A stretch of DNA of 32,453 nucleotides from assembly GCA_035762505.1 (NCBI GenBank), contig DASTOO010000146.1:1-32453 (forward strand), read 5' to 3'. Positions 1 to 32,453 of the stretch are shown piece by piece. The notes beneath the pieces are model-generated. The model was not told the origin of the DNA and did not search any database. It was given only the letters and a program-made list of their open reading frames with translations. The stretch comes from Candidatus Krumholzibacteriia bacterium. Lineage in GTDB: Bacteria; Krumholzibacteriota; Krumholzibacteriia; WVZY01; JAKEHA01. Numbering within the stretch: the stretch's first letter is position 1; each line of letters begins with the position of its first letter. Both the position numbers and the translations under genes were made by a program.

Positions 1-685
1 TCACCGTGTCGCCGCGGAACGCCTGTACGCCCGTCAGCATCTCGTAGAGCACGCAACCGAACGCGAACACGTCGCTGCGCTTGTCGACGCTCTTGCCGCG
101 CGCCTGCTCGGGGCTCATGTATGCCGCCGTCCCCAGGATCACGCCCGCCCCCGTCGGCGAGCTCGCCAGGACCGTCGGGGACTGCGACAAGCGCGGGTCC
201 CGTCCTTCATCGGACTCGAGCGCCTTCGCCAGGCCGAAGTCGAGCACCTTCACCCGCCCCTCCGGCGTCAGCTTGATGTTCGCCGGCTTCAGGTCGCGGT
301 GCACGATCCCCTGCTCGTGCGCGTACTCCAGCGCCTCCGCGATGTCCCGCGCGATCGGGAGGGCTTCCTCCACCGGGATCGGTCCCTGCGCGATCCGCGC
401 CGACAGGTCCTCCCCGTGCACCAGCTCCAGAACCAGGAACCGCTTCCCCTCCGCCTGCTCCAGCCCGTAGATCGCCGCGATATTCGGATGGTTCAGCGCC
501 GCCAGGAGGCGCGCCTCGCGCTCGAAGCGCCCCAGGCGCTCCGGATCATCGGCGAACGCGGGTGGCAGGAGTTTCAGCGCCACGTCGCGCCCGAGGCGCG
601 TGTCCCGCGCGCGGAACACTTCGCCCATTCCGCCCGCGCCGATCTGCTCGATGATCTCGTAGTTGCCGAGTTTTTTGGTATCCAT
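1..685 (-). CDS. Ser/Thr protein kinase, N-terminal catalytic domain; partial (C-terminus lies beyond base 1)
   Basis: Own reverse-strand translation from ATG (685-683): MDTKKLGNYEIIEQIGAGGMGEVFRARD..DVALK..HRDLKPANIKL..DFGLA..GTAAYMSPEQ. The frame stays open to base 1. Not in the supplied ORF track because it has no in-window stop. Confidence 0.9.
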   Translation of the reverse strand, partial: MDTKKLGNYEIIEQIGAGGMGEVFRARDTRLGRDVALKLLPPAFADDPERLGRFEREARLLAALNHPNIAAIYGLEQAEGKRFLVLELVHGEDLSARIAQGPIPVEEALPIARDIAEALEYAHEQGIVHRDLKPANIKLTPEGRVKVLDFGLAKALESDEGRDPRLSQSPTVLASSPTGAGVILGTAAYMSPEQARGKSVDKRSDVFAFGCVLYEMLTGVQAFRGDTV

Positions 686-760
686 GGAATGTCGTGCCGG
701 GATTGGTTGAGAGGTGTCGTTCATGCGGGAATCGCGGCAGTATATCGCAAGGCCCGGCGC

Positions 761-798
761 GGCGAAAGCGAAAGCGGGCTCCCCGCAGGGAGCCCGCT
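761..798 (-). terminator. Rho-independent terminator candidate after the HYR-repeat gene
   Basis: 11-bp perfect stem (773-783 pairs with 788-798) with a 4-nt loop. On the minus strand it is followed by TTCGCTTTCGCC (761-772). It lies 29 nt after the stop at 828-830. Confidence 0.55.
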
Positions 799-827
799 TC
801 GTCCCTTGAACCGGAACCGCCGGCCCG

Positions 828-3800
828 CTACTTCAGCAGCACGATCTTGCGGGTCTCACTGTACGACCCCGCGATCATCCGCACGAAGTACACCCCCGAC
901 GTCGCCGGCCGCCCCGCGTCGTCCGCACCGTTCCACACCGCCTGGTACCCACCCGCCGGCTGCGAGTCGTCCACCAGCCGCCGCACCAGCGATCCCCGAA
1001 CGTCGTAGATCGCGATCCGCACCTGCTCCGACTTGAGCAGCGTGTACGCCACCGTCGTCTGCGGGTTGAACGGATTCGGGTGGATCGACGACAAAGCCGT
1101 CGCCTTCGGAGCGTCCGTCACTTCCGGAACGTCCAGCGGCGGCGTGATGTCGAGCCACACGCCCGGCATCTCCACCGGTGTGCCCAGCGCGAAGATGTTG
1201 CCCACCAGGTAGTCCACGCCCGAGCGCGTCGTGTAGTGGATCCCCAGAGGCCCGTCCCCGCGCTCCCGCGTCAGGCTCGAACCCGACTCGCTCAGATCCA
1301 GCGACGTACTCGCGCCCACCAGAACGTCTACCGCCTCCGTCCGGTAGAACAACGCCAGGTCCACATGCCCGTCCGCGTTCACGTCCACCACCCGCGTCTC
1401 CGCCGGCCGGATCACTCCCGCCGTGTTGCCAAGATAGATCCGCGACGTCTCCAGCTCGGCCGCGTCCACCGCGTCCGTCGTTGGGATGACCACCGCGAAC
1501 GTCTCCGACGCCCCCGTGAACGTCTTCCCGTCCAGGCTGAACCCCGTCGACGCCAGTGCCGCACTCCCCTGGTCGTGCGGCACCCGCACGCACACCGTGT
1601 CGTACGCCACGTTCCCCGACATGTCCATCGCCTGGTAGTAGATCGTGTACTTCCGCCCGTCCTCCCCACCCATCCGCTCCGAGCGCAGCTCGATGCACTC
1701 GTCGGCCGTGCCCAACACGTCGCCCTGGATGTCATCGGTCGTGTGGCCGTCGCCCAGGTCGTTCTCCGGCTCGTCCGACACCGCACCGAACAGAACCCAC
1801 GTGGGATCCGGGTCGCAGATGTCCGTCACCGTCACCGTGGCACACACCGTCGCCAGCTTGTGGTTCGGCGGCCACAGAACGTCCCGGTCCAGCACCACGT
1901 CGATCTCCGGCGGCGTCGTGTCCTCCACCGTCACCGTCGCCGTGCACTCCGTCGTGAGCCCCGCGTCGTCCGTCGCCGTGAACGTCACCGTCGTCTCCCC
2001 CAGCGGGAAGCAATCCGGCGCGTCGTTGGTGATCGCCACGTCGTCGTCGCACACATCCGTCGCCGACACGCCGTCAAAGAACGGAATGAGCAGCGTGTCA
2101 TCCTCCGCCACCCCGCAGTGGCTCGAGCACTCCACCACAATGTCGGCCGGGCACACGATGACGGGGGGGGTGGTGTCGACGATCGTCACGTCGGCCGTGC
2201 ACTGGTCGGAACCCCCGAGCTCGTCCGTCGCGGTGAACGTGACGGTCGTGGTGCCCTCGTCGAAGAAGGACGGGGCATCGTGCGTGATCGTGATCGTGCC
2301 GCAACCGCCCGACGCCGAAGCGCCGGCGAGAAACGCCACGATGGCCGGATCGGTGGCCGGCGTCCCGCCGTGCTGCGAGCACTCGACCGAGATATCCCCC
2401 GGGCAGGTGATCGCAACCGCGGCCGGCGCATTGGCCTCGCGCCCGAACCACGTGAAGTGCGGCTCGGCGGCGGCGCCGCCTCCGCCTCCGCGCAGAACAT
2501 GCGCGCTCGCCACCCAGGTGTGGCCGAAGGGATCGTTGCGCCGCGCCGTGTAGTAATCGCCCCACCTGTTGTTGTCCGGGCCGTCATCGCCCTGCGATAC
2601 GAAGTAGCTCTCGAGCGGAGCGATCACATCCCCGTTGTAGTCGTCGGCCAGCCACGCGGACACCGACGGATACGGCACCGAATTGCCGCCGCCGCCGAGG
2701 CCGATCACGCCGCCGAGGTCCCCGTTGTCGTTGGGGTGGACGGCCGGGTACGCCCAGGCGAAGTCGTCGTTCCAGATCTGGCCCTGGTCGGCCAGGCCCA
2801 GGCCGCCCTCGTTGAATACCGCATAGCGCACGTTCGGCCAGGCGAACCCGTCGCCCTGGGCGGAGCCCCACATGAAGCCGACGCGGCCGGCCGCGACCCA
2901 CGCGGTGAGGATGTCGTTGAAGTCGCGCGCCACCCAGTCCGTGCCGTCCGGACTCGGCGCCGAGGAACCGGTGAAGTACTGATCGACGTCACGGTCGACG
3001 GAGGCGAGCGCGCCCGCCTCGGTCCAGCTGAAGATGCGCAGCGTGTTGTCGTCCACCTGCGTGCCGACGTACATCGTGCCCGCCGCTCCGTGCGTGCAGC
3101 GGACGTTGGCCAGCGAGGAGGCGAAGCTCGCGCCCGAGGCCGTCGCCGCGTTGGCGAGGTCGTCCAGGTCGAGCCGGATCACGCGCGCGCGGTCGCCGGT
3201 CGTGCTGCCCGTCCCGAAGTTCGTCGTGATGTACAGGAAATTGTCGCTGGCCGACAGGTCGGGGAAATCGAAGTTGTTGCTGGTCGCGTAACCCAGATCC
3301 TGCGGAGAGATGTCATACCACCACCAGTCGGCGAGGTTGGTGGTCGGGTTGTCGGAGATTGCGAGACGCACGATGTTGTTGTTGCTGCCGTCGCGCGTGT
3401 ACTGCAGGTACCAGCAGAAGATCCCGCGGCTGGGCTCGTAGTACACCACCTGGTCGCAACAGAATCCGCCGGCGGCGGTTGGAAAGAACGTGGCGGGATT
3501 CACGAACGTGAAGGTCTGGCCGCCATCGTTGGATATCGAACCATACCAGTTGCCGGTGTACACGACGTTGCTGCACGACATTCCGAGACTCGGCTCGTTG
3601 GTCGACGAGGTCGAGTTGTTGGTGAAGACGTCGGTCATCGTCGTGGTCCGGAAGAACGTGAAGTCCCCCGGCGCGCGCATCGTGCCCGGCGCCGCCGGCA
3701 GGTCCGCGCGCGCGGTCGTTTGCGGTGAGCGGTACAGCACGCCACCCGCGGTCGGGTCCTTCGCCAGCGTGTAGCGCGCCCGTCGCTCCTGGTAGAGGAC

Positions 3801-3983
3801 ATCGATGGCCTTCTCCCGTTGCTCGACCTCGTAGGGGGTGAGCTCGGGAGACGCCTGGATCACCGGCTGCACCGGCGCGCGCTGTGGTTTCAGTGTAAAC
3901 GTTTCCACCGCGAGCGCGGGTGCGGCCATGATCGCCAGACAGATGATACATACTGCGATCGACGGGTAATGCCTCGTTCTCAT
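828..3983 (-). CDS. Large secreted protein: signal peptide, beta-propeller-like (BNR/sialidase-like, tentative) region, two HYR domains, FG-GAP/VCBS-like segment, C-terminal FlgD-Ig/T9SS-type sorting domain
   Basis: Track ORF 828..4211. I place the start at ATG 3983-3981 (MRTRHYPSIAVCIICLAIMAAPALA, a signal peptide), preceded by AAGGAG 8 nt upstream. Motifs seen: SNDGGQTF, repeated C..TTVTFTATD..G...C.A.VT..DTTPP, VDVNADGHVD, and C-terminal PNPFNPQTTVAY...VYFVRM...RKIVLLK. Confidence 0.85.
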   Translation of the reverse strand: MRTRHYPSIAVCIICLAIMAAPALAVETFTLKPQRAPVQPVIQASPELTPYEVEQREKAIDVLYQERRARYTLAKDPTAGGVLYRSPQTTARADLPAAPGTMRAPGDFTFFRTTTMTDVFTNNSTSSTNEPSLGMSCSNVVYTGNWYGSISNDGGQTFTFVNPATFFPTAAGGFCCDQVVYYEPSRGIFCWYLQYTRDGSNNNIVRLAISDNPTTNLADWWWYDISPQDLGYATSNNFDFPDLSASDNFLYITTNFGTGSTTGDRARVIRLDLDDLANAATASGASFASSLANVRCTHGAAGTMYVGTQVDDNTLRIFSWTEAGALASVDRDVDQYFTGSSAPSPDGTDWVARDFNDILTAWVAAGRVGFMWGSAQGDGFAWPNVRYAVFNEGGLGLADQGQIWNDDFAWAYPAVHPNDNGDLGGVIGLGGGGNSVPYPSVSAWLADDYNGDVIAPLESYFVSQGDDGPDNNRWGDYYTARRNDPFGHTWVASAHVLRGGGGGAAAEPHFTWFGREANAPAAVAITCPGDISVECSQHGGTPATDPAIVAFLAGASASGGCGTITITHDAPSFFDEGTTTVTFTATDELGGSDQCTADVTIVDTTPPVIVCPADIVVECSSHCGVAEDDTLLIPFFDGVSATDVCDDDVAITNDAPDCFPLGETTVTFTATDDAGLTTECTATVTVEDTTPPEIDVVLDRDVLWPPNHKLATVCATVTVTDICDPDPTWVLFGAVSDEPENDLGDGHTTDDIQGDVLGTADECIELRSERMGGEDGRKYTIYYQAMDMSGNVAYDTVCVRVPHDQGSAALASTGFSLDGKTFTGASETFAVVIPTTDAVDAAELETSRIYLGNTAGVIRPAETRVVDVNADGHVDLALFYRTEAVDVLVGASTSLDLSESGSSLTRERGDGPLGIHYTTRSGVDYLVGNIFALGTPVEMPGVWLDITPPLDVPEVTDAPKATALSSIHPNPFNPQTTVAYTLLKSEQVRIAIYDVRGSLVRRLVDDSQPAGGYQAVWNGADDAGRPATSGVYFVRMIAGSYSETRKIVLLK
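1905..2413 (-). repeat. Two tandem HYR (hyalin-repeat) domain units inside the secreted protein gene
   Basis: Unit 1 reads ITCPGDISVEC...TTVTFTATDELGGSDQCTADVTIVDTTPPVI. Unit 2 reads VCPADIVVECS...TTVTFTATDDAGLTTECTATVTVEDTTPPEI. Matching DNA segments (cgtccgtcgc[c/g]gtgaacgt[c/g]ac[c/g]gtcgt) recur about 260 bp apart. Boundaries are approximate. Confidence 0.6.
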
Positions 3984-4219
3984 AGTAGACACTCCTTGCC
4001 ACCCGCACACATGCACGGGCTGTGAATGTCGACGCCGAGGCTCGGCTGGTTCGGGCCGTGGGGGCGTCGTACCGTGAATCTGGTACTTCTTGAGGAACTC
4101 GACCGAGGGGTCCCGCTCGGGGGCGAGCAAACTGCCTCGCGGGAAAAGGGGGACGACTCGCTCGCGGGCCGCACGCCGACACCCGCGGACGGGGAGGGTG
4201 GCGAGGCCCACGATCGGGA

Positions 4220-11980: not shown

Positions 11981-12415
11981 CGGGCGAGCCTCCTAGTCTT
12001 GAATTTGCCCGCGGGGGGCGAAACCGTTGCCGGCCATATTGCCCCATAACTCGTGACAGGTCAAGGGGTTTTTGGCGGCGTCTCCGAAACGCAACGCCCC
12101 GCCTCATTGTGAGAGGCGGCGCACGGTGCGACGCGCCACCATGGGGATGATCCGGGACGTTCGCGCGCCGGGCAGCCCTCCTGCGTTTCCGCGGAAGACG
12201 AGGCACGGGAGAGAAAGCGGCGTCCTCATGCGGCCGTACGCGCATTGGTACGTCAGTTGCTGAACGAAGCAACCGTGCTGCGGGGTAGTCGCCGCACAAG
12301 CATCTGTTGTACGTAGTTCACCGCACTGCCCCGCAGCCATGAGCAATCGCAAGCAAGCAGGAGACGCGATCGGATGACCGCACCGTGTCGCGCCCAGATT
12401 GAGGAGGCACTCATC

Positions 12416-14979: not shown

Positions 14980-15638
14980 GCGGAGAACTCGATGACGGGG
15001 CGTTCTTCGGCCGGCAGCGACTCCAGCGCCGCGCGCAGGCGCGCGCACGACGCGCACTCGCCGCACATGCGCTCGCCGCCGCGGTAGCAGCTCCACACGA
15101 TCGACAGCGGCGCCTTCAACTGCAGCCCGAGGCGGATGATCTCGCGCTTCGCGAGGTCGATGGTGAAGCTCTCCACCCGCACCGCGTTGCGCGTGGACAA
15201 CTCCAGCGCCGCATTGACGCGCGACACGTACTCGCCGCTGTTGTCGGGAAACTCCTCCGCCTCTTCCCGGTTGAATCCCGTCACGACCGTGTCGCAGCCG
15301 CGGCCCTCGGCGTACGCGGCGGCGATATTCACGAACACGCCGTTGCGGTTCGGGATCCACACGTCGTCCAGGGTGCGCAGCGGTGCCCCGTCGTCGCCGG
15401 TGCTCTGCATGCCCGCGGGCGAGAGCGCCTCCAGCCAGCGGATGTCGACGTCGGCGAACGGGATTCCATAGTAGTTCGCGGCACTCATCGCGGACACGCG
15501 CTCGCTCACGCGCGCGCGCTGTCCATAGTCGAAGAAGAGCACGAGCCGCACGTCGCGTTCGCGCGCGGCGCGGGCGAGCGAGACGAGCGAGTCGAGCCCG
15601 CCGCTCACGAGCGCGATGCTCTGCAGGCGCCGCGTCAT
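14976..15638 (-). CDS. queC: 7-cyano-7-deazaguanine (preQ0) synthase
   Basis: SIALVSGGLDS (PP-loop SGGxDS), IPNRNG, and the C-terminal zinc-binding CYRGGERMCGECASCARL. The ATG (15638-15636) overlaps the queD TGA (ATGA). Confidence 0.9.
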   Translation of the reverse strand: MTRRLQSIALVSGGLDSLVSLARAARERDVRLVLFFDYGQRARVSERVSAMSAANYYGIPFADVDIRWLEALSPAGMQSTGDDGAPLRTLDDVWIPNRNGVFVNIAAAYAEGRGCDTVVTGFNREEAEEFPDNSGEYVSRVNAALELSTRNAVRVESFTIDLAKREIIRLGLQLKAPLSIVWSCYRGGERMCGECASCARLRAALESLPAEERPVIEFSA

Positions 15639-16018
15639 CGCTCGGCGTAGGCCGCGCAGGCTTCGGGGCCTTCCCAGACCTCGACGCGGGCAAGCCGTCC
15701 GTTCGGGCCGGGCTGGTGGCGCTCGCGGAGAATCGTGAACACCTCGCGCGCCAGGTTCTCCGCGGTGGGAGGCAGGCGATCGAAGGGGGCGATGTCGTTG
15801 AGGTGCCGGTGGTCGAACCGGTCGTGCACCTCGCGCCCCAGAAGCGCCTTGAGGTCGCGGAAGTTGGCGCCCATCCCGTGCTGGTCGAGACCGTGGAACT
15901 CCCAGAACGCACGCACGGTCCAGGTGTGGCCGTGCAGCCGGTCGCACGGCGGGCAACCGGGCAGGACGTGCGACGACGCCAGCCGGCACTGGACGGACAG
16001 GGTAAAGATTCCAGTCAC
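15635..16018 (-). CDS. queD: 6-carboxy-5,6,7,8-tetrahydropterin synthase (PTPS family)
   Basis: 127 aa with SSHVLPG...CDRLHGHTW (Cys/His zinc-catalytic motif) and DHRHLND. GTG start. Confidence 0.9.
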   Translation of the reverse strand: MTGIFTLSVQCRLASSHVLPGCPPCDRLHGHTWTVRAFWEFHGLDQHGMGANFRDLKALLGREVHDRFDHRHLNDIAPFDRLPPTAENLAREVFTILRERHQPGPNGRLARVEVWEGPEACAAYAER

Positions 16019-18650: not shown

Positions 18651-18666
18651 CGGCACGGACTATGCT
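18651..18666 (+). promoter_or_regulatory. Sigma-54-type -24/-12 promoter candidate upstream of the Cys-motif/coiled-coil/TPR gene
   Basis: CGGCACGGACTATGCT has GGCACG identical to the -24 consensus core and ATGCT versus TTGCW at -12, with correct spacing (GG 18652-53, GC 18664-65). It lies 97 nt upstream of ATG 18762. Confidence 0.4.
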
Positions 18667-18761: not shown

Positions 18762-20114
18762 ATGAAGATCTGCCCGTTCATGTCGCACATGCTGGGAGCC
18801 GAGGGAAACGTCCTCGAGATCGACTCGCCCGCGCCGCGCGCGGCGGGTGACGTCGTCGTTCTCGGCTACGACGAAGGAGAATCCGGCGGCGTCAAGACGG
18901 AGCGCAGGCCGGCGCGGGCGACGACGAAGGCGAGAAACGAAGCGACCGCCACCGCGTCGCACCTCTACTGCCTGCGCGACACCTGCCGGTTCTACCGGAC
19001 CAAGGACGGCGAGTGCACGTTCGACTCCATCCTGGAGAGCGTCAGCCAGCAGTCGAAGGCCGTCGCCGAGCTGAGCGCGGGCGCCGACCGCGACAAGAAG
19101 GACGCCACCGCGGCCACGGTAACCCGCGAGCTGGACAAGTTCTGGAAGTTCCAGACCAAGAGCGTCACGGAGCTGATCTCGAGCTTCGGCGACTCCGAGA
19201 AACGGCAGACGGAGTCTTTCTCGAAGCTGGTTTCCGACGTGGAGAAGCGCATCATCGCGTTCATGGACGAAGAGGACAATCGTGACGAGCGCATGAACAC
19301 GATCCGCGACGGCGTAGCCGAGATCAAGGACACGATCGACGCGCGCAACGACGGCTTCGAGACCCTCACCACGACCGTTTCCGACCTCGTGATGTCCTTC
19401 GAGGACAACCTCAAGGAGATCCGCACCCACTGGCAGTCGCTGGCAAAGCGGCTCGACGCGCTCGAAGGCGCGGCCGCGAAGATGAACACCACGGACGGCG
19501 GCGCGGCTCTGGAGAAGGTGTCCGCGAAGATCGAAGCGGTGGACGCAAACGTCGCGCGCACCGTCGAGAACCTCGATCGCATGGAGCGCAACTGGGGCGA
19601 GCTGATGGAGGTCGTCAAGAGCTCCAAGAAGAAGAGCGACGACCCGGGCGCGCAGAACCGCCGTCGCGAGGCGATGAAGTTCAACAACCTCGGCGTGACG
19701 AGCTTCCACAACGGCGACCTCGCGCTCGCCCGCGACCAGTTCCTGGAAGCGGTCAACCGCGACGACACCTTCGCCGAGTGCTACAACAACCTCGGGCTCG
19801 TGTACACCGAGCAGGGAGAATCGCAGCTCGCCGCCGACGCCTTTACGCGTGCGATCCAGATCAACCCCGAGCTGCACGCGGCATACAACAACCTCGGCTA
19901 CGTGTACTACAAGCAGGGCGAGTACGATCGTGCGATCGAGATGTACAACGAGGCTCTGGCGCGCAGCTCCAACAACAGCTCGGCGTACACGAACCTGGGC
20001 AACGCATGGTTCAAGCTCGGCGACCGCAAGCAGGCGCGCAAGGCGTGGGAGCGGGCCATCGAGCTCGATCCCGCCAACGAGACGGCGCTGCGCAGCCTCA
20101 AGAACCTGGGCTGA
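18762..20114 (+). CDS. Hypothetical protein: N-terminal Cys motif, long coiled-coil, C-terminal TPR repeats
   Basis: AAGGAG 7 nt upstream of the ATG. MKICPFMSH...YCLRDTCRFYRTKDGEC. Heptad-like charged central region. Four to five TPRs (AECYNNLGLVYTEQGE.., AAYNNLGYVYYKQGEYDRAIEMY.., SAYTNLGNAWFKLGD..). Confidence 0.85.
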   Translation: MKICPFMSHMLGAEGNVLEIDSPAPRAAGDVVVLGYDEGESGGVKTERRPARATTKARNEATATASHLYCLRDTCRFYRTKDGECTFDSILESVSQQSKAVAELSAGADRDKKDATAATVTRELDKFWKFQTKSVTELISSFGDSEKRQTESFSKLVSDVEKRIIAFMDEEDNRDERMNTIRDGVAEIKDTIDARNDGFETLTTTVSDLVMSFEDNLKEIRTHWQSLAKRLDALEGAAAKMNTTDGGAALEKVSAKIEAVDANVARTVENLDRMERNWGELMEVVKSSKKKSDDPGAQNRRREAMKFNNLGVTSFHNGDLALARDQFLEAVNRDDTFAECYNNLGLVYTEQGESQLAADAFTRAIQINPELHAAYNNLGYVYYKQGEYDRAIEMYNEALARSSNNSSAYTNLGNAWFKLGDRKQARKAWERAIELDPANETALRSLKNLG

Positions 20115-20217: not shown

Positions 20218-20463
20218 CTAGGCGGCCTCCATGCTCGGCGCCGCGTCCTGTCCGCGCTTCTGACTGCGCAGGACGCCCTTCGCCTGAGGACCCTTCGGAC
20301 TATCCATCAACTCGTACTCGACGACCTCTCCCTCCGCCAGCGTGCGGTAGCCGTCCTCGCGAATCTCGGAGTAGTGAACGAAGATGTCTTTCCCGTTGTC
20401 ACCGAGAATGAAACCGTAACCCTTGTTTTCGTTGAACCACTTTACTTTACCAGTTATCCGCAA
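20218..20463 (-). CDS. cspA: CspA-family cold-shock protein with a short C-terminal extension
   Basis: [17 protein letters not shown] (RNP1) and DIFVHYSEI (RNP2). I favour the TTG start at 20463-20461 (AAAGGGGGA about 8 nt upstream). The track ORF begins at GTG 20496, which has no RBS. Confidence 0.85.
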
Positions 20464-20585
20464 GCTTCCGGTCCCCCTTTCAAAAGCAAAACCCACCGCG
20501 CATGGCTGCCCGGTGGATTCCCCTGGTTTCCGTTCAGATGTTGGCTGCGAACACGTGCTCTAATCCTTGGCGTGAGGACTGGCGG

Positions 20586-20615
20586 ATTATAGCACGGCGG
20601 CTCCACGCGCGTCAA
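20586..20615 (-). promoter_or_regulatory. Strong sigma-70-type promoter with extended -10 for the cold-shock gene
   Basis: Minus strand reads TTGACG (20615-20610), an 18-nt spacer ending in TGc, then a perfect TATAAT (20591-20586). The predicted leader is about 115 nt to the TTG start. Confidence 0.6.
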
Positions 20616-20819
20616 GCGACGACGCGACCTTCTGGGCCTGCGGACGCCATCTTCCACCCTTGCTGGAAACGGAAAGCAACTGCCGGGAAGCGCTCACGGA
20701 CGCGCCGGTGTCGTTGCATTCCGCGATCTTCACCTTTCCGCGCCGGCCCCGCGTGCGCGCCCGGCCGCGACCGCACGCGCACTTCGCCCCCCGGCCCGCG
20801 CCGCCGGGGCGCAGTGCGG

Positions 20820-20834
20820 TGGCATGGAACTTGC
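20820..20834 (+). promoter_or_regulatory. Near-consensus sigma-54 (-24/-12) promoter upstream of the FHA/phosphatase/kinase operon
   Basis: TGGCATGGAACTTGC versus the consensus TGGCAC-N5-TTGC. The only deviation is C to T at base 6. GG at 20821-22, GC at 20833-34. It ends 59 nt upstream of the RBS-supported GTG 20893. Confidence 0.6.
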
Positions 20835-20892
20835 CCTTTCTTGTTCGCTGACAAGGTGTTTCCCGATCGGTCCGGACGAGGAAGGTCACCGC

Positions 20893-22272
20893 GTGAAGAT
20901 CACGATTCCACATACGAAGCAAATCGGCGAGAGCGGCGAGGTCACCCGGGCCACGCTCAACGATCTCATGCGCGCCACCATCGACGCGAGCACGGCGAAG
21001 CCCTGCGTCCTCGAGATCTACGACAGCCTCAGCCAGCGCTTTCTCTTCGTGCGTGAGCGTCAGATCTATGCGGCGGCGGAGCTGAACGGCGGTGCGTTCG
21101 CCGCCACGTCGATCCGCGACTTCCTCCTCGGCGCGACCAACATGAGCTTTCCCCGCGCCACGTGGTACGAACTCAACACCAAGATCATCCACTCCGTCCT
21201 GGTGGTGGCGCAGAAGAAGCCCGCGTTGCGCGTCATGACGTCGCTCGTCGACCTGGATGAGCTGCTCGACCGCATCGAGAAGGAAGGCAAGAGCTGCATC
21301 GTCGCGGCGACGCGCGAGGACTTCCTCGCCATGCTCCGCTACGAGAAGGGCAAGACGGCGGCGTTCTGCTGGGAGCAGTCCATCACCGCGCCGCGCGAGG
21401 CGTCGTTCCGCGAGGACTTTCTCATCAAGGTCTACTCGAACGCGGCCGAGCGCCCCATGAACGTCAGCCTGTACGAGGACTTCCTCGTCTCCTACGCGCC
21501 GGACGCCAAGAACCTCCCCGAGAGCTTCAACGGGCGCTTCGCCGACGTATTCCTCTCCAAGCCGCCGGTCGTGATCCTGCGCTTCAAGGACCGCGAAATC
21601 GGGCGCTGGGAGATGGACCGGCCGCGCCTGCGCATCGGCCGCACCCCGGACAACGACATCGTGATCGACAACCTCGGCGTCTCGCGCCTGCACGCGGTCA
21701 TCGAGGAAGAGAAGGGCGCGTACTCGGTCCGCGACTGCGACAGCCTGAACGGCACCGTGGTCAACGGCGAGCGCACCCCCCACCAGACGCTGCAGGACGG
21801 CGACGAGATCTCCATCGGCAAGCACACGATCGTGTTCCGCGTGCCCAGCGGCCACGCGATACCGGAGCCGGAGACGATCGCCGGCTTCGACCAGACGATG
21901 ATCATCTCGCGCAGCTCCGTGTCGCACACCAACAAGACGCAGGAGGCGCCGGCCATGCAGGCCCGGGCGTCCGCCCCGACGCGCGAGCGGACCCCGCGCC
22001 TCGTCATCCACACCGATTACGGCGACCGCGTGGTCGAGATCGCCGACGAGGCGGTCACCATCGGTCGCGACGAGGACGCGGATGTGCGGGTGAACGGCAT
22101 GTTCGTCGCTTCCCGGCACGCCGAGATCACGCGGGAGAACGGCCGCGTGGTGCTGCGCCGCGTGGGCGGGATGCGCGCGGTCAAGGTGCGCGGCCGGTCG
22201 GTCAAGGAAGTGGAGCTCAAGGACAACGACGAGATCCAGATCGCGAGCGAGTTGTTCGTATTTCACGAGTAG
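20893..22272 (+). CDS. Dual FHA-domain protein with an uncharacterised ~230-aa N-terminal domain
   Basis: GTG 20893 has GAGGAAGG 7-8 nt upstream. The track ATG at 20824 lies inside the sigma-54 motif. FHA1: LRIGRTPDNDIVIDNLGVSRLHAVI..NGTVVNGER..ISIGKHTIVF. FHA2: VTIGRDEDADVRVNGMFVASRHAEI..DEIQIASELFVF. Confidence 0.85.
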   Translation: MKITIPHTKQIGESGEVTRATLNDLMRATIDASTAKPCVLEIYDSLSQRFLFVRERQIYAAAELNGGAFAATSIRDFLLGATNMSFPRATWYELNTKIIHSVLVVAQKKPALRVMTSLVDLDELLDRIEKEGKSCIVAATREDFLAMLRYEKGKTAAFCWEQSITAPREASFREDFLIKVYSNAAERPMNVSLYEDFLVSYAPDAKNLPESFNGRFADVFLSKPPVVILRFKDREIGRWEMDRPRLRIGRTPDNDIVIDNLGVSRLHAVIEEEKGAYSVRDCDSLNGTVVNGERTPHQTLQDGDEISIGKHTIVFRVPSGHAIPEPETIAGFDQTMIISRSSVSHTNKTQEAPAMQARASAPTRERTPRLVIHTDYGDRVVEIADEAVTIGRDEDADVRVNGMFVASRHAEITRENGRVVLRRVGGMRAVKVRGRSVKEVELKDNDEIQIASELFVFHE

Positions 22273-27029: not shown

Positions 27030-27512
27030 ATGGCCACACCAGTGATGACGTCCCAAGAGCTCGCTTCATACTTCAGAGACCCTCTTTGCATCTTCGACCT
27101 GAAGGCGACGACCAAGCGCGACGCGCTGGCCGAGCTGGTCGAAGCGGTGTGCGCCGATCGTGACATCCGGGACCGTGGCCTGATTCTCGAAATGCTGCTC
27201 AACCGCGAAAGCCTGGGCAGCACCGCCATCGGCAAAGGCGTCGCGTTTCCGCACGGCCGCACGCTCGCGGTGCGCGAGCTCTCCATCGCCTTCGGGCGCT
27301 CCGTTTCCGGCGTCGACTTCGATTCCATCGACAAGCAGCCGACACACGTGTTCTTCCTCATCATCGCCCCCCCGCAGGACCGCGATAATCTGTACCTGCA
27401 GGTTCTCGGCCGCGTCGTCGACCTCATCAAGGACGATGCCGCGCGCGGGCGCATCATGGGCGCATCGAGCGTCGGAGAACTGAAATCCATCGTCGAAGGG
27501 CAGGGCTTGTGA
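27030..27512 (+). CDS. ptsN: PTS EIIA type-2 domain protein (PtsN / EIIA-Ntr-like)
   Basis: In-frame C-terminal part of track ORF 26520..27512, starting at ATG 27030. LNRESLGSTAIGKGVAFPHGR (phospho-His context) and HVFFLIIAP. About 160 aa, typical of a stand-alone EIIA-Ntr. Confidence 0.8.
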   Translation: MATPVMTSQELASYFRDPLCIFDLKATTKRDALAELVEAVCADRDIRDRGLILEMLLNRESLGSTAIGKGVAFPHGRTLAVRELSIAFGRSVSGVDFDSIDKQPTHVFFLIIAPPQDRDNLYLQVLGRVVDLIKDDAARGRIMGASSVGELKSIVEGQGL

Positions 27513-27868
27513 GCGATCTTCCGGCAAAAAAGCAGGACCAGGCGCGACTCCTGGTCGCACTACAGGACATCGACCACATGATCAAGGAAGCGGAGGACAC
27601 CAAGACCTCCGCGAAGTTTCAGGAAATGGGCTTTCCGCTCGACGGAATCCTCGAGTTGAAGAAGGCCCGCGAAGAAATCGCCGCAAACGTCAAACCCCAG
27701 CTCCTCAACCGGTATCAGCGCGTCTCGAAGAACTACGAACGCTCGGTCGTTCCCGTGGTCGGCGAGTTGTGCACGGGCTGCTTCGCCAAGGTGCCGACGT
27801 CCTTCCGCTACGAGAAGAACGCCGTCGTGGCCTGCGAGAACTGCGGCCGCATTCTCTACTTCACGTAG
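27509..27868 (+). CDS. Short C4 zinc-ribbon protein of the DUF164/COG1579 (HP0958-like) type
   Basis: The GTG start overlaps the ptsN-like TGA (GTGA). Coiled-coil-like N-terminus, then VVPVVGELCTGCFAKVP....VVACENCGRILYF, matching the C..C...C..CGRILY ending I associate with this family. Confidence 0.8.
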   Translation: MSDLPAKKQDQARLLVALQDIDHMIKEAEDTKTSAKFQEMGFPLDGILELKKAREEIAANVKPQLLNRYQRVSKNYERSVVPVVGELCTGCFAKVPTSFRYEKNAVVACENCGRILYFT

Positions 27869-27907
27869 TCTCTCACTATACGTGTGGCCGCGCGGCAGTT
27901 GTCCGTG

Positions 27908-28008
27908 GCAGCGGTGTGCGGTCTGCGCAACGTCCTCGCGTGAACGACGAAGTGGCCGGCAAGTCCCAGCATTTGCTGCGGATTGTTGCTCAGACCGCAC
28001 ACCGCTGC
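27908..28008. repeat. Long inverted repeat forming a ~100-nt hairpin (function unknown; ncRNA or regulatory candidate)
   Basis: 18-bp perfect inverted repeat: GCAGCGGTGTGCGGTCTG (27908-27925) pairs with CAGACCGCACACCGCTGC (27991-28008). After one mismatch it extends by 5-6 more pairs (27927-32 with 27984-89). Confidence 0.6.
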
Positions 28009-28129
28009 TCCCGGGCGCCGTTCCGCGCGGGTGGCGGTCAGCGGGCGCCCGTGCGGGCGAGCCATTTATCGCGAAGGCGGAAACTGGCGAGACCGCGACG
28101 GGCTGCTGACCGACAGGACCCGCGCGGCA

Positions 28130-28169
28130 ATCAACCCGGCTGGTAGAGTGAAACGTGATCAACCGGGCT
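28130..28169 (+). promoter_or_regulatory. Direct repeat pair abutting the -35 of the EBP promoter (operator candidate)
   Basis: ATCAACCCGGCT (28130-41) and ATCAACCGGGCT (28158-69) share 11 of 12 bases and start 28 nt apart. The second copy ends at the first T of the TTGCTT -35 hexamer. Confidence 0.3.
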
Positions 28170-28196
28170 TGCTTTTCGGCCGTACTCTGGTAAAAT
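28169..28196 (+). promoter_or_regulatory. Sigma-70-type promoter with extended -10 for the enhancer-binding protein gene
   Basis: TTGCTT (28169-74), a 16-nt spacer ending in TGg, then TAAAAT (28191-96), in the only AT-rich patch of the spacer. The leader to ATG 28277 is about 70 nt. Confidence 0.5.
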
Positions 28197-28276
28197 AATT
28201 TTACTTTTCGTCCGCAAGGTATTGTTTCTTGCCCGTCTTGCCCGCTTGCCGGGGCCATACGGACGTGGGAGCGGCC

Positions 28277-31200
28277 ATGGAGTCTTCCGTTCGAACCTTC
28301 CGTCGCAATCTCGAGCCCATCGAGGAGGAGCGGGTTGCGGGCGCCTGGCGCGTGGCCGGGCACGTCGACCTGGTCAGCGAGCGCAGGTTCCTCGTGGCCT
28401 GGGCGGCGACCGACGCCGCCGGAAGAACCGACGCGAACGTGCTCACCTTTCGGTGTGACGCCGCCATGGCGATCGCGCCGGATGCTTGTCTCCCCGCGCT
28501 CGACATCACCACCGGCAATGGCCGCGCCGAGATTCTCACCTCCTTCGCCCGGCGGCTGGATGACAACGAGTGGTCGAACGGTGACATCGAGCGCGCGCTG
28601 CTCTCCCTGATCGATACCCTGGATCGCCTAGACGCCCACGCGTTCCACGCCGTGCATCTCAACGCCGATCTCGTCGGGCTCGACGAGACGAGTGCGCTCG
28701 TCGTTTTCCCGGCCGCGTACGCGTTTCCGCCGGATGCCGCCGACCCGGCGCGCGCCGGGCTGGATGCGAGGGCGATCTCACGCGCGGCGCATGTGCATAC
28801 CCTCGCGAGCGTGGCGAAGACGCTGGCGCCGCACGCCACGGGCGCGTTCGCGGACCGGCTGCGCAGGCTCGTCGCCGCCATCGCGGCGGGCTCGGTCGCG
28901 GGCGCGGCCCAGGCACGAACGTTACTCGCCGCCGAGACGAACGCCGCCCCGACCCCGGCGGCGCCCGCGCGCAAGCGGGACGACATCCCTTTCGACACGG
29001 CCGGCGCCCTGCGCGCGATCGCGGAGTCGAAGCCGGTGGAGGTCGCGGGACCCGCCGGCAGCGGCCGCACGGCCGTGCTCGAACGCTTCGCTGCGGAAGC
29101 ACGGCGAGCCGGCATCGACCCGCACTGGCTGGACGAGTGGGAGATCCCGGGCACCCCGCGCAAGCGCGGCGCCGGCCGCGAGGCGGGGCGCGGTACGGTG
29201 TGGATCGTCGACGACGCGGACGAGCGCCCGCTCCTGCATGCGTTCGTGCTGGACCACGCCGCCGAACTGGAGCGGCGGCCCGGCGCGGGGCTCGTGATCG
29301 CCACGCGGTCCGACGACCGGCCCAGCGCCTTCATGGCGCTCCTGCGCTCGCGCAGCCCGCACGGCGTGTTCACCGCGACTCTCCCGCCCGCGCGCAGCGA
29401 CGACCCGCGCGCCGCCGCGCTGGACACGCTGGAACCGGACGCGCGCCAGGCGCTCGAGCTGGTCGCGGTGGCCGATTGTCCGCTGCCCATCGACGTGGTG
29501 CTCTCGGTGTATCCGGGCACGGACCGGGCGGTGCACCGGCACATCTTCGCCCTGGCCGGCGCCGACCTCGTCGCCATCGAGTCGCGTCGTCTCGCCGCCG
29601 GCAGCGCGACCCTCCTCGTCTCCGTTCCCAGCGCGTCGCTGCGCCGCCTGATCCGCGACCGCATTCCGGAATCGCGCCGGCGCAACCTGCACCGCACCAT
29701 CGCGCGCATCGCCGACGAACGCGGCTCGTTCGCCCCCATGTTCGTTTACCAGCATCTCCTGGGCGCCGGCGAAGGACGCGACGCCGCTGCGCGCGCGGCG
29801 GCCTTCGTCCGCGAGGCGACGCGCCCGCAGCGCGCGCCATTCATCGAGAGCATCGTGCGCGACGTGATCGAGAGCGGCCTCGACCGCAGCCTCGCCTACG
29901 GCGACCGCATGACGCTCCTCGTCCGCGTCGGCGACGATCTGCTCGCCCGCGGCAGGCAGAAGGAGGCCGAAGCGCTCCTCGTCCGCGCCCGCGCCATCCG
30001 CGCCAGCGGCGACGACGTCCGCGCCAAAGCCCCGCTCGCGGGCGAGGCGATGCGGCTCCTGGCCGACGCGTGGGCCGCGCGCGGGCAGCTGCGCGAGGCG
30101 CTCGAGCTGCTCGAGGATACGCGCGAGGATATTGCGCCCTACCTGAGTCTCGCGGAGCAGGCCCGGCTGCTGAACGACATCGGCTGGTTCCAGTACCGCC
30201 TCGGCGACTATTCGAGTTGCGTGGACTCGTGCAAGTTCACGATCAACACGCTGAACCCGAACGAACACCCGCTGGTGGTCGCCCAGGCGCTGAACCTGAT
30301 GGGCGTCATCGCCTTCAACACGAGCCGTTACGACGAGGCGGTTTCTTACTACGAGCAGAGCGCGTTCCTGCGCGAGCGCGAGAAAGACCTCAACGCGCTC
30401 GCCGGCTCCTACAACAACCTGGCGCTGGCGTACCAGTCCAAGGGCGAATACGACAAGGCGCTCGGCTATCTCCACAAGAGCATCGAGATCAAGAGCCGCC
30501 AGAACAACGAAGCGGGCATCGCGGGCGGCTACCTGAACCTCGCGTTCCTCTACCTGGAGGTGCACAACTTCGACGAGGCGGAGCGGCGTTGCCGCGAGAG
30601 CCTGCGCATCAGCTCCGAGCTGGGACTCGCGCAGCTCATCGCCGAGAACCTCAACACCCTCGGCGACATCGTGTTCGCGCGCGGCCGCCTGGACGACGCC
30701 GAGCGCTACTACCGCGATTCCCTCGGCAACGCGCGGCGGCTTTCCACCGTGAACGAGGAGATGGGCGCGCAGAAGCGCCTCGCCAAGCTGTACATCCGCA
30801 AGGGCCGTCCCGAGGACGCGCGTGCCGCCATCGACGAGGCCTCGCGTCTCGCCGCCCAGATCGGATCGAAGTACGAGCAGGCGCAGACCGAGGAGATCTA
30901 CGGCGACCTGAGCGTCTCGGAGGGCGTGCACGGCGCGGCACTGGATCATTTCGAGAAGGCCGCGACGGCGTACGCGACCCTCTCCAAGCTCCGCCTCGCG
31001 GCGGCGTCCCTGGCCAAGGCGGGGATCGCGCACGCGAAGAACAGCAACCCGCTCGACGCGAAACGATACCTGGACCGCGCGCAGGACCTCATGAAGTCGC
31101 AGATCGGTCACGAGATTCCCGAAGAGATCGTGACCCTGCAGCAGACTCTGCGCGAGAGCCCGCTGCCCACCGCGGTGTCGGGCACGGCGTCGCAGAAGCT

Positions 31201-32453
31201 CATGTACGCGTTCAACGAGCTTTCCTCCCTCTCCGACTACGCCGACGACAAGGGCGCGTTCTTCCGCCGCATCATCGAGGTCTTCCAGAGCCTGCTCGGC
31301 GCCGCGCAATGCACGCTCGCGTTGCGGACCGAGGACGGCTTCGTGGGGTTGAACGCCGCCGGCGAGGAGCAGCCCATCGCGGACCCGATCATGCAGGGGG
31401 TGTTCGCGCGCGCCCTGCAGCTGGGCATGGTCATGCACTGCGGCTCACCGGAGATCAAGGACATCCTCGCGCGCGGACCGAAACCCGACCCGGCCATCCG
31501 GCTCGTGATCGTGCCGATGAAGTCGATGGGAAAGGAACTGGGGTGCATGCTCCTCACCGTGCCGCCCGCGTCGGTTCCCGCGACGCGGGAGGACGTGGAC
31601 TTCATCACCTGCATCGGACGGCACGTGGCCGGCGGTCTGCGGCTGAGCCTCCACTTCGACGAGCGTTCGAGCACCGAGCAGCGTTTCGAGCGCGACCTCG
31701 ACGGCCTCGTGTCGCCGGCCGCGGACGCGAACCGTTTCCAGACGCTCATCGGGCGCGACGAGTCCATGAAGAAGGTCTTCCGCGTGATCGACAAGATCAA
31801 GGACATGGACACGGGCATTCTCATCTTCGGGGAGAGCGGCACCGGCAAGACGGAGATCGCGCGCACCATTCACAACACGAGCCTGCGGCGGCGTCACGTG
31901 TTTCAGTCGATCCACTGCGCGGAGATCCCGACCAGTCTCCTCGAGAGCGAGCTCTTCGGCCACGAGCGCGGCGCTTTCACCGGCGCGGTGCAGCGCAAGC
32001 TCGGCCGCTGCGAGATCGCGGACGGCGGCACCGTGTTCCTGGACGACGTCAACGTGATGCCGCTGGACACGCAGGCGAAGCTCCTCCACTACCTGGAGAA
32101 CAAGAGCTTCACGCGCCTGGGGGGCACGCAGAAGATCACGACCGACGTGCGCCTCATCGCGGCCAGCAACGAGGACCTCGAGCGGCTGGTGAAGGAGAAC
32201 CGCTTCCGCGAGGACCTCTACTACCGGCTGAAGGTCAACCAGATCGAGCTGCCGCCGCTGCGGGATCGCCAGGACGACATGATCCTGATCGCCCAGGAGT
32301 TCATCAAGAAGCGCTGTCACCAGCAGGAGAAGCCGTTGAAGCGGCTCTCCTCGGAGACGATCAAGCTGTTCCAGAAATACCGCTGGCCGGGGAACGTGCG
32401 CGAGCTGCAGAACGTGCTCGAACAAATCGTGCTCCTGTGCGACGATGACATCG
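28277..32453 (+). CDS. Giant sigma-54-dependent transcriptional activator (EBP): N-terminal unknown/kinase-like region, P-loop NTPase (STAND-like), TPR array, GAF-like domain, sigma-54 AAA+ domain; partial (3' end beyond window)
   Basis: Own translation. ATG 28277 has GGGAG 5 nt upstream. The frame is open from 28199 to the window end and is absent from the ORF track. [10 protein letters not shown] and VWIVDDADE; TPRs ([27 protein letters not shown]..); then [45 protein letters not shown]. Confidence 0.9.

Follow-up and report, generated by a model that had tools for sequence, protein, structure and literature searches.

The 32,453-nt stretch of DNA considered here (contig DASTOO010000146.1 of a Candidatus Krumholzibacteriia bacterium, hereafter "the window"; 67.4% G+C) carries three consecutive genes encoding an FHA protein, a metallophosphoesterase and a Hanks-type Ser/Thr kinase, preceded, in the 426-nt intergenic spacer that separates them from a divergently oriented csp gene, by a motif of the σ54 type, designated P2. 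As had been predicted from the letters of the window, P2 is very probably the −24/−12 promoter element through which σ54 (RpoN) directs the transcription of the three genes; the element recurs in all 35 orthologous loci compared, with its critical bases invariant and with both its spacer and its flanks free to vary. The nearest relatives of the window, found by scanning a genome collection with the FHA protein, are metagenome-assembled genomes (MAGs) labelled Candidatus Krumholzibacteriia or Latescibacterota/Latescibacteria. The features discussed in the text are collected in Table 1.

Table 1. Positions of the genes and sequence elements in the window
Feature	Position	Strand	Basis or remark
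P1, second σ54-type element, CGGCACGGACTATGCT	18651-18666	+	96-111 nt upstream of TPR/coiled-coil gene (18762-20114)
csp gene	~20218-20466	−	Pfam CSD domain, E 2e-25; divergent from FHA gene
csp promoter, σ70 type, TTGACG-N18-(TG)TATAAT	20586-20615	−	11/12 consensus matches
Box A, TTGCATTCCGCGA, core TTGCA	20714-20726	+	candidate activator site
Inverted repeat GTGCGCG...CGCGCAC	20753-20782		15-nt arms, 80% complementary
Box B, GC-rich, CGCGtCCnGACGCc in relatives, palindromic there (GCGTC..GACGC)	20764-20779		close-clade alignment
Wider close-clade block, GTGGCATGGAACTTGCCC-TTTCTyGTT-CGCyGACAA	20817-20856	+	alignment of 12 close loci
P2, σ54-type −24/−12 element, TGGCATGGAACTTGCC	20820-20835	+	35/35 orthologous loci
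Ribosome-binding site of FHA gene, GAGGAAGG	20878-20885	+	sequence reading
Gene 1, FHA protein, 459 aa	20893-22272	+	Pfam FHA, E 3e-33; two FHA domains
Gene 2, calcineurin-like metallophosphoesterase, 243 aa	22289-23020	+	Pfam Metallophos_2, 6e-14; Metallophos, 1.5e-13
Gene 3, Hanks-type Ser/Thr kinase, 611 aa	23039-24874	+	Pfam Pkinase, 1e-51; PEGA, 1e-18
Giant enhancer-binding protein (EBP), >1390 aa, cut by window end	28277-32452	+	Pfam Sigma54_activat, E 6e-63

The operon and its upstream region

The three genes are separated by gaps of 16 nt (FHA–phosphoesterase) and 18 nt (phosphoesterase–kinase), and their synteny holds in all the loci long enough to include them; their grouping into an operon stands. 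The GTG that opens the FHA gene can likewise be retained as a start codon supported by a ribosome-binding site: close relatives keep an (A/G)A(A/G)GG element 7–9 nt ahead of their start codon, and all the orthologues align from residue 1, the protein similarity beginning at the GTG/TTG start. The N-terminal ~240 residues of this protein (20893–21612) are well conserved across the clade, many of them being invariant; this region gave no Pfam match at E ≤ 1, belongs to no NCBIfam family and resembles no PDB sequence, and its single-sequence AlphaFold model (predicted local distance difference test score, pLDDT, 33) is unusable. The second gene product, the "phosphatase" of the original prediction, is a YfcE-like metallophosphoesterase, all its NCBIfam matches falling below cut-off; its activity as a protein phosphatase is presumed from the context. 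The kinase displays the HRDIKPGN and DFG motifs, a single predicted transmembrane segment (approximately residues 322–342) and two C-terminal PEGA domains.

On the opposite side of the spacer, the csp gene has, as anticipated, a divergent promoter of the σ70 type that bounds the regulatory region of the FHA gene on the left and both hexamers of which are kept in 17/17 aligned loci. The recovery of this promoter as a conserved element indicates that footprinting is capable of detecting promoters in this lineage, and also that the lineage makes use of canonical σ70 hexamers rather than of the Bacteroidota-type −33/−7 motifs, despite its membership in the Fibrobacteres–Chlorobi–Bacteroidetes (FCB) group. 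On the plus strand, no σ70-like promoter was found between positions 20100 and 21100.

In σ54 promoters, the GG and GC dinucleotides lie exactly 10 nt apart within TGGCAC-N5-TTGC. The sequence at 20820–20834, TGGCATGGAACTTGC (also tggcatggaacttgc), agrees with nine of the ten specified bases, its GG (20821–22, corresponding to −25/−24) and GC (20833–34, corresponding to −13/−12) being spaced exactly as required; both particulars had been correctly read beforehand. Furthermore, P2 matches the extra G (20826, position −20) of the extended TGGCACG consensus. The element is correctly oriented and located, as stated in the original prediction, in non-coding DNA ahead of the GTG of the FHA gene, the distance being 58 nt and not the 59 nt then given.

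Conservation of the −24/−12 element and of its surroundings

The comparison comprised 35 loci, namely the window, 17 loci retrieved from the genome collection with the FHA protein as query and having a full-length FHA orthologue together with its upstream region (identity 53–78%), and 17 loci retrieved from metagenomes with an alignment of the orthologues as query (FHA identity down to 34–35%, locus G+C 51–65%); the whole set thus spans FHA identities of 34–78% and G+C contents of 51–67%. All 35 have the pattern [T/C]GGC[A/G][T/C]-N5-TTGC, located 60–84 nt ahead of the start codon; its chance frequency, calculated from base composition, is ~1.4e-5 per position. Among the 30 distinct sites, G−25, G−24, C−23, T−15, T−14, G−13 and C−12 are invariant (30/30) and both T−26 and A−22 are found in 29, whereas the 5-nt spacer may read GGAAC, AGAAT, AGAAA, ATTTC, TCTTT, TTTTC, CGATT or CGGTT. 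The mean pairwise identity of the motif is 0.86 vs 0.2–0.5 in sliding windows of the flanks, and in the four most distant loci of the genome scan (L014, L015, L016 and L018) 14–15 of the 16 positions are identical to those of P2 against a flank identity of 30–37% upstream and 32–38% downstream. Fixed −24/−12 bases accompanied by a free spacer and free flanks are, at the level of sequence, the conservation pattern of a σ54 promoter. In two loci (L010 and L032) the distance between −24 and the start codon is 83 nt instead of the ~72 nt seen elsewhere, that is about one helical turn longer.

In the close clade the conservation extends beyond the element itself to a wider block that takes in the promoter, the region predicted to melt and, if the predicted start is right, some 10 bases at the beginning of the transcript. 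The portion of this block from −11 to approximately +10 (CCTTTCTyGTT-CGCyGACAA, 20835–20856) is kept in the close clade and not in the distant ones and is devoid of a conserved RNA structure; it could reflect either an operator or a constraint on the promoter-proximal or initially transcribed region.

Upstream activator sequences of σ54 promoters typically lie ~80–150 nt upstream. In this interval the alignment reveals Box A, which in the close clade has the fuller extent cgTTGCATTCCGCGA (20711–20726) and whose TTGCA core is found in 25/35 loci, 104–108 nt upstream of T−26 in 23 of them and 115 nt upstream in L010 and L032, where the additional spacing (115 vs ~106 nt) again amounts to about one helical turn; elsewhere within the 200-nt upstream regions TTGCA occurs only three times. 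Box A would be centred near −131 with respect to the start predicted for the transcript and, by virtue of its expected position and phasing, is a better candidate for the activator site than the inverted repeat to which this role had been tentatively assigned. This repeat does exist in the window, with the arms given in Table 1, but its sequence is not conserved in the orthologues and it was rejected as activator site; in 18 loci the 70-nt stretch preceding −24 forms no consistent hairpin, with z-scores between −2.1 and +2.3 (−1.16 for the window). The right arm of the repeat is overlapped by Box B, which is degenerate in the window, weakly conserved within the close clade and was not found in the distant clades. 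Two distant loci without Box A (L033 and L034) share a CCGCAT-N4-ATGCG inverted repeat ~30–45 nt upstream of the motif, and their activator site could be another one.

A second element of the same type, P1, lies between two TPR genes. Its pattern, GGCAC[GA][GA]A..nnTGCT, is invariant in 14 close-clade loci, even as the motif lies anywhere from ~2 to 70 nt after the preceding stop codon; P1 is missing from loci in which no gap separates the two TPR genes, and the more distant clades have neither the spacer nor the site. No TTGCA box is present upstream of P1, where the region is coding. That P1 and P2 have in common only the bases read by σ54 favors recognition by this factor and argues against a site-specific repressor. 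Position −11, on the other hand, is T in P1 (18666) and C or G in every P2 site (20835 in the window); RpoN paralogues of Rhodobacter are stated to discriminate promoters at −11 (PMC3162934), and the difference between P1 and P2 could stem from distinct specificities of RpoN or of the EBP.

A probable σ54 promoter and the competing readings

Taken at the level of sequence, P2 agrees with σ54 promoters in every respect but the weak preference for A/T at −11, and its assignment as the promoter of the FHA/metallophosphoesterase/kinase operon is held with high confidence. Since no promoter of the σ70 type is detectable on the plus strand, σ54 would probably be the only entry point for the operon. 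Transcription from σ54 promoters starts ~12 nt after the GC and needs ATP hydrolysis by an EBP. By analogy with the σ54 promoters that have been studied, RNA polymerase carrying σ54 would bind the GG at −25/−24 and the TTGC at −15 to −12 to yield a stable closed complex unable to open by itself; an AAA+ EBP would then assemble at an upstream site, the best candidate being the TTGCA box located ~106 nt upstream, and, having reached σ54 by DNA looping and through its GAFTGA loop, would hydrolyze ATP and thereby open the promoter. Transcription should begin at about position 20846 (12 nt beyond C−12), leaving a leader of ~47 nt, and the kinase/phosphatase/FHA module would remain off until the activator is switched on.

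In the window, GGCA...TGCC constitutes a 4+4 inverted repeat, GGAACTT is equal to the RpoE-type −35 consensus, and the sequence downstream of −12, TTTCTCGTT-CGCCGACAA, is likewise conserved in the close clade and could be an operator, so that the block might be regarded as the operator of a dimeric factor (GGCA-N7-TGCC) or as the −35 box (GGAAC) of an extracytoplasmic function (ECF) σ factor, superimposed on an unrecognized promoter. This is nevertheless improbable. GGAAC gives way to AGAAT, ATTTC, TCTTT, TTTTC, CGATT or CGGTT while GGC and TTGC stay fixed, and the palindrome is broken without compensation by TTGCG in 5/30 sites and by GGCG in L012 and L013; the variable spacer and the uncompensated changes led to the rejection of both the ECF box and the palindrome. 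Moreover, the invariant T−26, T−15 and T−14 fall outside any palindrome, the second site, P1, shares with P2 nothing but the σ54 bases, and no −10 element is conserved at the spacing of either an ECF factor or σ70.

An RNA element in the 5′ leader of a transcript starting further upstream, be it a hairpin or a protein-binding site, is less probable still. GGCA and UGCC could indeed pair into a 4-bp stem, in which the A-to-G change of L012 and L013 would leave a G–U pair, but such a stem closing a 7-nt loop should be only marginally stable and would leave the invariant TT at −15/−14 unpaired; RNAalifold returned 0 pairs and thus no conserved leader structure, Rfam gave no match at the gathering threshold or at E ≤ 1, and the only promoter-like sequence conserved upstream of P2, the TTGCA box, has no −10 partner. 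Least probable of all is that the match arose by chance in GC-rich DNA, or that it belongs to coding sequence beginning at ATG 20824, a start whose use was recognized from the outset as incompatible with a promoter at this place. The number of one-mismatch matches in the window is what chance would yield (see below) and the reading frame 20824–22272 is open there; across the loci, however, the motif is present in 35/35 with flanks that cannot be aligned in at least eight sequence groups, no more than 6/35 have ATG 20824 in an open reading frame continuous with the gene, in-frame stops intervening in several others, the distances between motif and start codon differ by non-multiples of three, and the conservation of the protein sets in at the GTG/TTG. 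The comparative data effectively refute both versions of this reading.

Several observations nonetheless weigh against the assignment of P2 to σ54 and against its activation from Box A. The window as such contains two one-mismatch matches to the consensus vs 1.98 ± 1.37 in shuffled sequences, which means that the match is not significant within the window and that the case rests on its position and on its conservation across loci; both matches are located no more than ~115 nt upstream of a gene start and in the right orientation, where ~0.1 such placements would be expected (an estimate based on ~27 genes), a coincidence whose significance is at best suggestive. Position −11 of P2 is C, in place of the usual A/T, and departs from the TTGCW form of the consensus; among the 30 distinct sites this position is C in 25, G in 5 and A or T in none, and −21 is T, not C, in 27 of the 30. 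The A/T at −11 is, however, a weakly informative position of the consensus and not a defining base. Box A is missing or unrecognizable in 10/35 loci and has no evident dyad, unlike many EBP sites. A tblastn search with an E. coli RpoN query gave no rpoN match in the window or in 103 loci, the only support being a Krumholzibacteriota MAG (bin 3.1) in which K03092 (rpoN) is annotated once (PMC10936416, Table S2c). The proximity to P2 of the gene for the giant EBP is weak and non-specific evidence, because this gene sits in a block that is generally syntenic, and both the start position of the operon transcript and its dependence on σ54 and an EBP are predictions from sequence.

When compared with canonical σ54 promoters, for which the consensus TGGCACG-N4-TTGCW (e.g., glnAp2, nifH, pspA) was reportedly given by Barrios et al. 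in 1999, P2 shares the GG-N10-GC arrangement, the conservation of TGGCA(T/C)G and TTGC alongside a free spacer, a location ~60–85 nt ahead of the start codon, a conserved sequence ~100 nt upstream, a GAFTGA-bearing EBP encoded nearby and the lack of a σ70 promoter. It differs by the C or G at −11 (TTGCC/TTGCG), by the T that mostly occupies −21, by an upstream box without obvious dyad and by its host, an uncultured lineage of the FCB group in which no σ54 promoter is known to have been studied. The use of the σ54 consensus has been discussed elsewhere (PMC3162934). P2 would represent a well-supported σ54 promoter, endowed with a 30-site frequency matrix, in a candidate lineage not known to have a cultured representative or studied promoters; it suggests that the recognition rules of σ54 hold in this lineage and leaves unchanged the understanding of how these promoters work. 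What it would bring about is the placing of a complete eukaryote-like kinase/phosphoesterase/FHA cassette under the all-or-none control of an activator. The preservation of the operon together with P2 down to 34–35% FHA identity suggests that the cassette serves a conditional programme and not a housekeeping function.

The neighboring candidate activator, known systems and other features of the window

That an EBP is encoded 7.4 kb away, as originally reported, is confirmed by the gene beginning with ATG 28277, whose product has a σ54-specific AAA+ domain with intact GESGTGKT (Walker A) and ERGAFTGA motifs; EBPs of the GAFTGA type are not known to act other than via σ54. The AAA+ domain is preceded by ~240 residues without assigned domain, a weak STAND/AAA_16-like region, TPR repeats and a weak GAF domain, the AAA_16/STAND and TPR matches at the N-terminus being weak. 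No FHA domain was detected on the part of the protein encoded in the window, the N-terminal 624 residues giving no such match at E ≤ 1 either. The EBP gene has a promoter of its own, of the σ70 type (TTGnnn-N16-TGGTAAAAT, 28169–28196) and kept in 6/6 loci, which suggests that the factor is made independently of σ54.

By its proximity this EBP may be the cognate activator of P2, an attribution to be taken as tentative and somewhat more likely to fail than to hold, and the "closed loop" between the cassette and the EBP that had been envisaged is less likely than that. It is also unlikely, although conceivable, that P2, joined in some members of the clade by P1, forms with the giant STAND/TPR/GAF-type EBP a lineage-wide circuit that keeps the cassette and the TPR/coiled-coil protein silent until the EBP fires, the kinase or the FHA protein then feeding back on the EBP; this feedback is pure conjecture. 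Were such a circuit to exist, a σ54-gated switch of Ser/Thr phosphosignalling would operate across the Krumholzibacteriia/Latescibacterota, perhaps in a cell-envelope or developmental programme. Two observations fit loosely with such a circuit: the C or G at −11 of P2 vs the T of P1, and the lack of a recognized family for the FHA protein's N-terminal domain.

The coupling of σ54 control to Ser/Thr phospho-signalling has precedents. In secretion systems of type VI (T6SS), RpoN together with VasH, Sfa2 or FleQ controls clusters that also encode PpkA, PppA and Fha (PMC10482370). Like these clusters, the present locus has a σ54-type promoter, with a candidate dedicated EBP, above a set comprising a Hanks-type kinase, a phosphatase and an FHA protein; unlike them, its phosphatase is of the Metallophos/Metallophos_2 and not of the PP2C type, its FHA protein scores 65 bits on TIGR03354 (VI_FHA), the cut-off of which is 120, and its signalling cassette makes up the whole operon instead of accompanying a secretion cluster as an accessory. 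The domain matches of the window's proteins include no T6SS family, and the locus does not belong to the class of the T6SS threonine-phosphorylation pathway. In Myxococcus xanthus, a network reportedly described by Jelsbak et al. in 2005 is said to couple σ54 EBPs to Ser/Thr kinases by means of EBPs bearing FHA domains. The two cases resemble one another in that σ54/EBP transcription and eukaryote-like kinase/FHA signalling meet in one regulatory neighborhood; in Myxococcus, however, the kinase acts on an FHA-bearing EBP, whereas the EBP of the window has no detectable FHA domain and the direction supported here is that of σ54 driving the kinase operon. The locus therefore matches neither the T6SS nor the Myxococcus type.

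To the right of the operon lie, in this order, a convergent heptosyltransferase gene, rsgA, a PTS-EIIA(Ntr)-like gene, a zinc-ribbon gene and the EBP gene. The ~13-kb block that goes from queD (a gene of the PTPS family, 15635–16018) to the EBP gene contains housekeeping genes and keeps its gene order in all the loci long enough to cover it; a smaller group, TPR–csp–FHA–phosphoesterase–kinase, stays together even at 35% FHA identity. The PtsN-like EIIA gene and the gene for the 119-residue zinc-ribbon protein (Zn_ribbon_9, CdsZ-like) overlap by 4 nt (GTGA) and together occupy 27045–27868 on the plus strand; the EIIA(Ntr)-like gene adjoins the EBP gene and not rpoN. An open reading frame on the minus strand (27560–28363) was rejected as a gene, being the shadow of the plus-strand zinc-ribbon gene (27509–27868). 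The 400-nt gap that precedes the EBP gene contains a 24-nt inverted repeat (27908–27931/27985–28008) with 96% complementarity and a 53-nt loop; it is absent from the orthologous gaps, its Rfam matches are confined to spurious miRNA hairpins, and it may be a small insertion.

A further sequence resembling a σ54 promoter, TGGTACGTCAGTTGCT (12246–12261, plus strand), matches the extended consensus at 11 of 12 positions and is found 113 nt upstream of ATG 12374, the start of a gene for a small fn3-domain protein, in the spacer that follows a divergent HU gene; it has T at −23, where C is invariant in P2. Finally, another gene for a Ser/Thr kinase, truncated at the start of the window (2–4211, minus strand), lies directly downstream of a gene whose 1127-residue product combines HYR, FlgD-Ig and type IX secretion C-terminal sorting domains.

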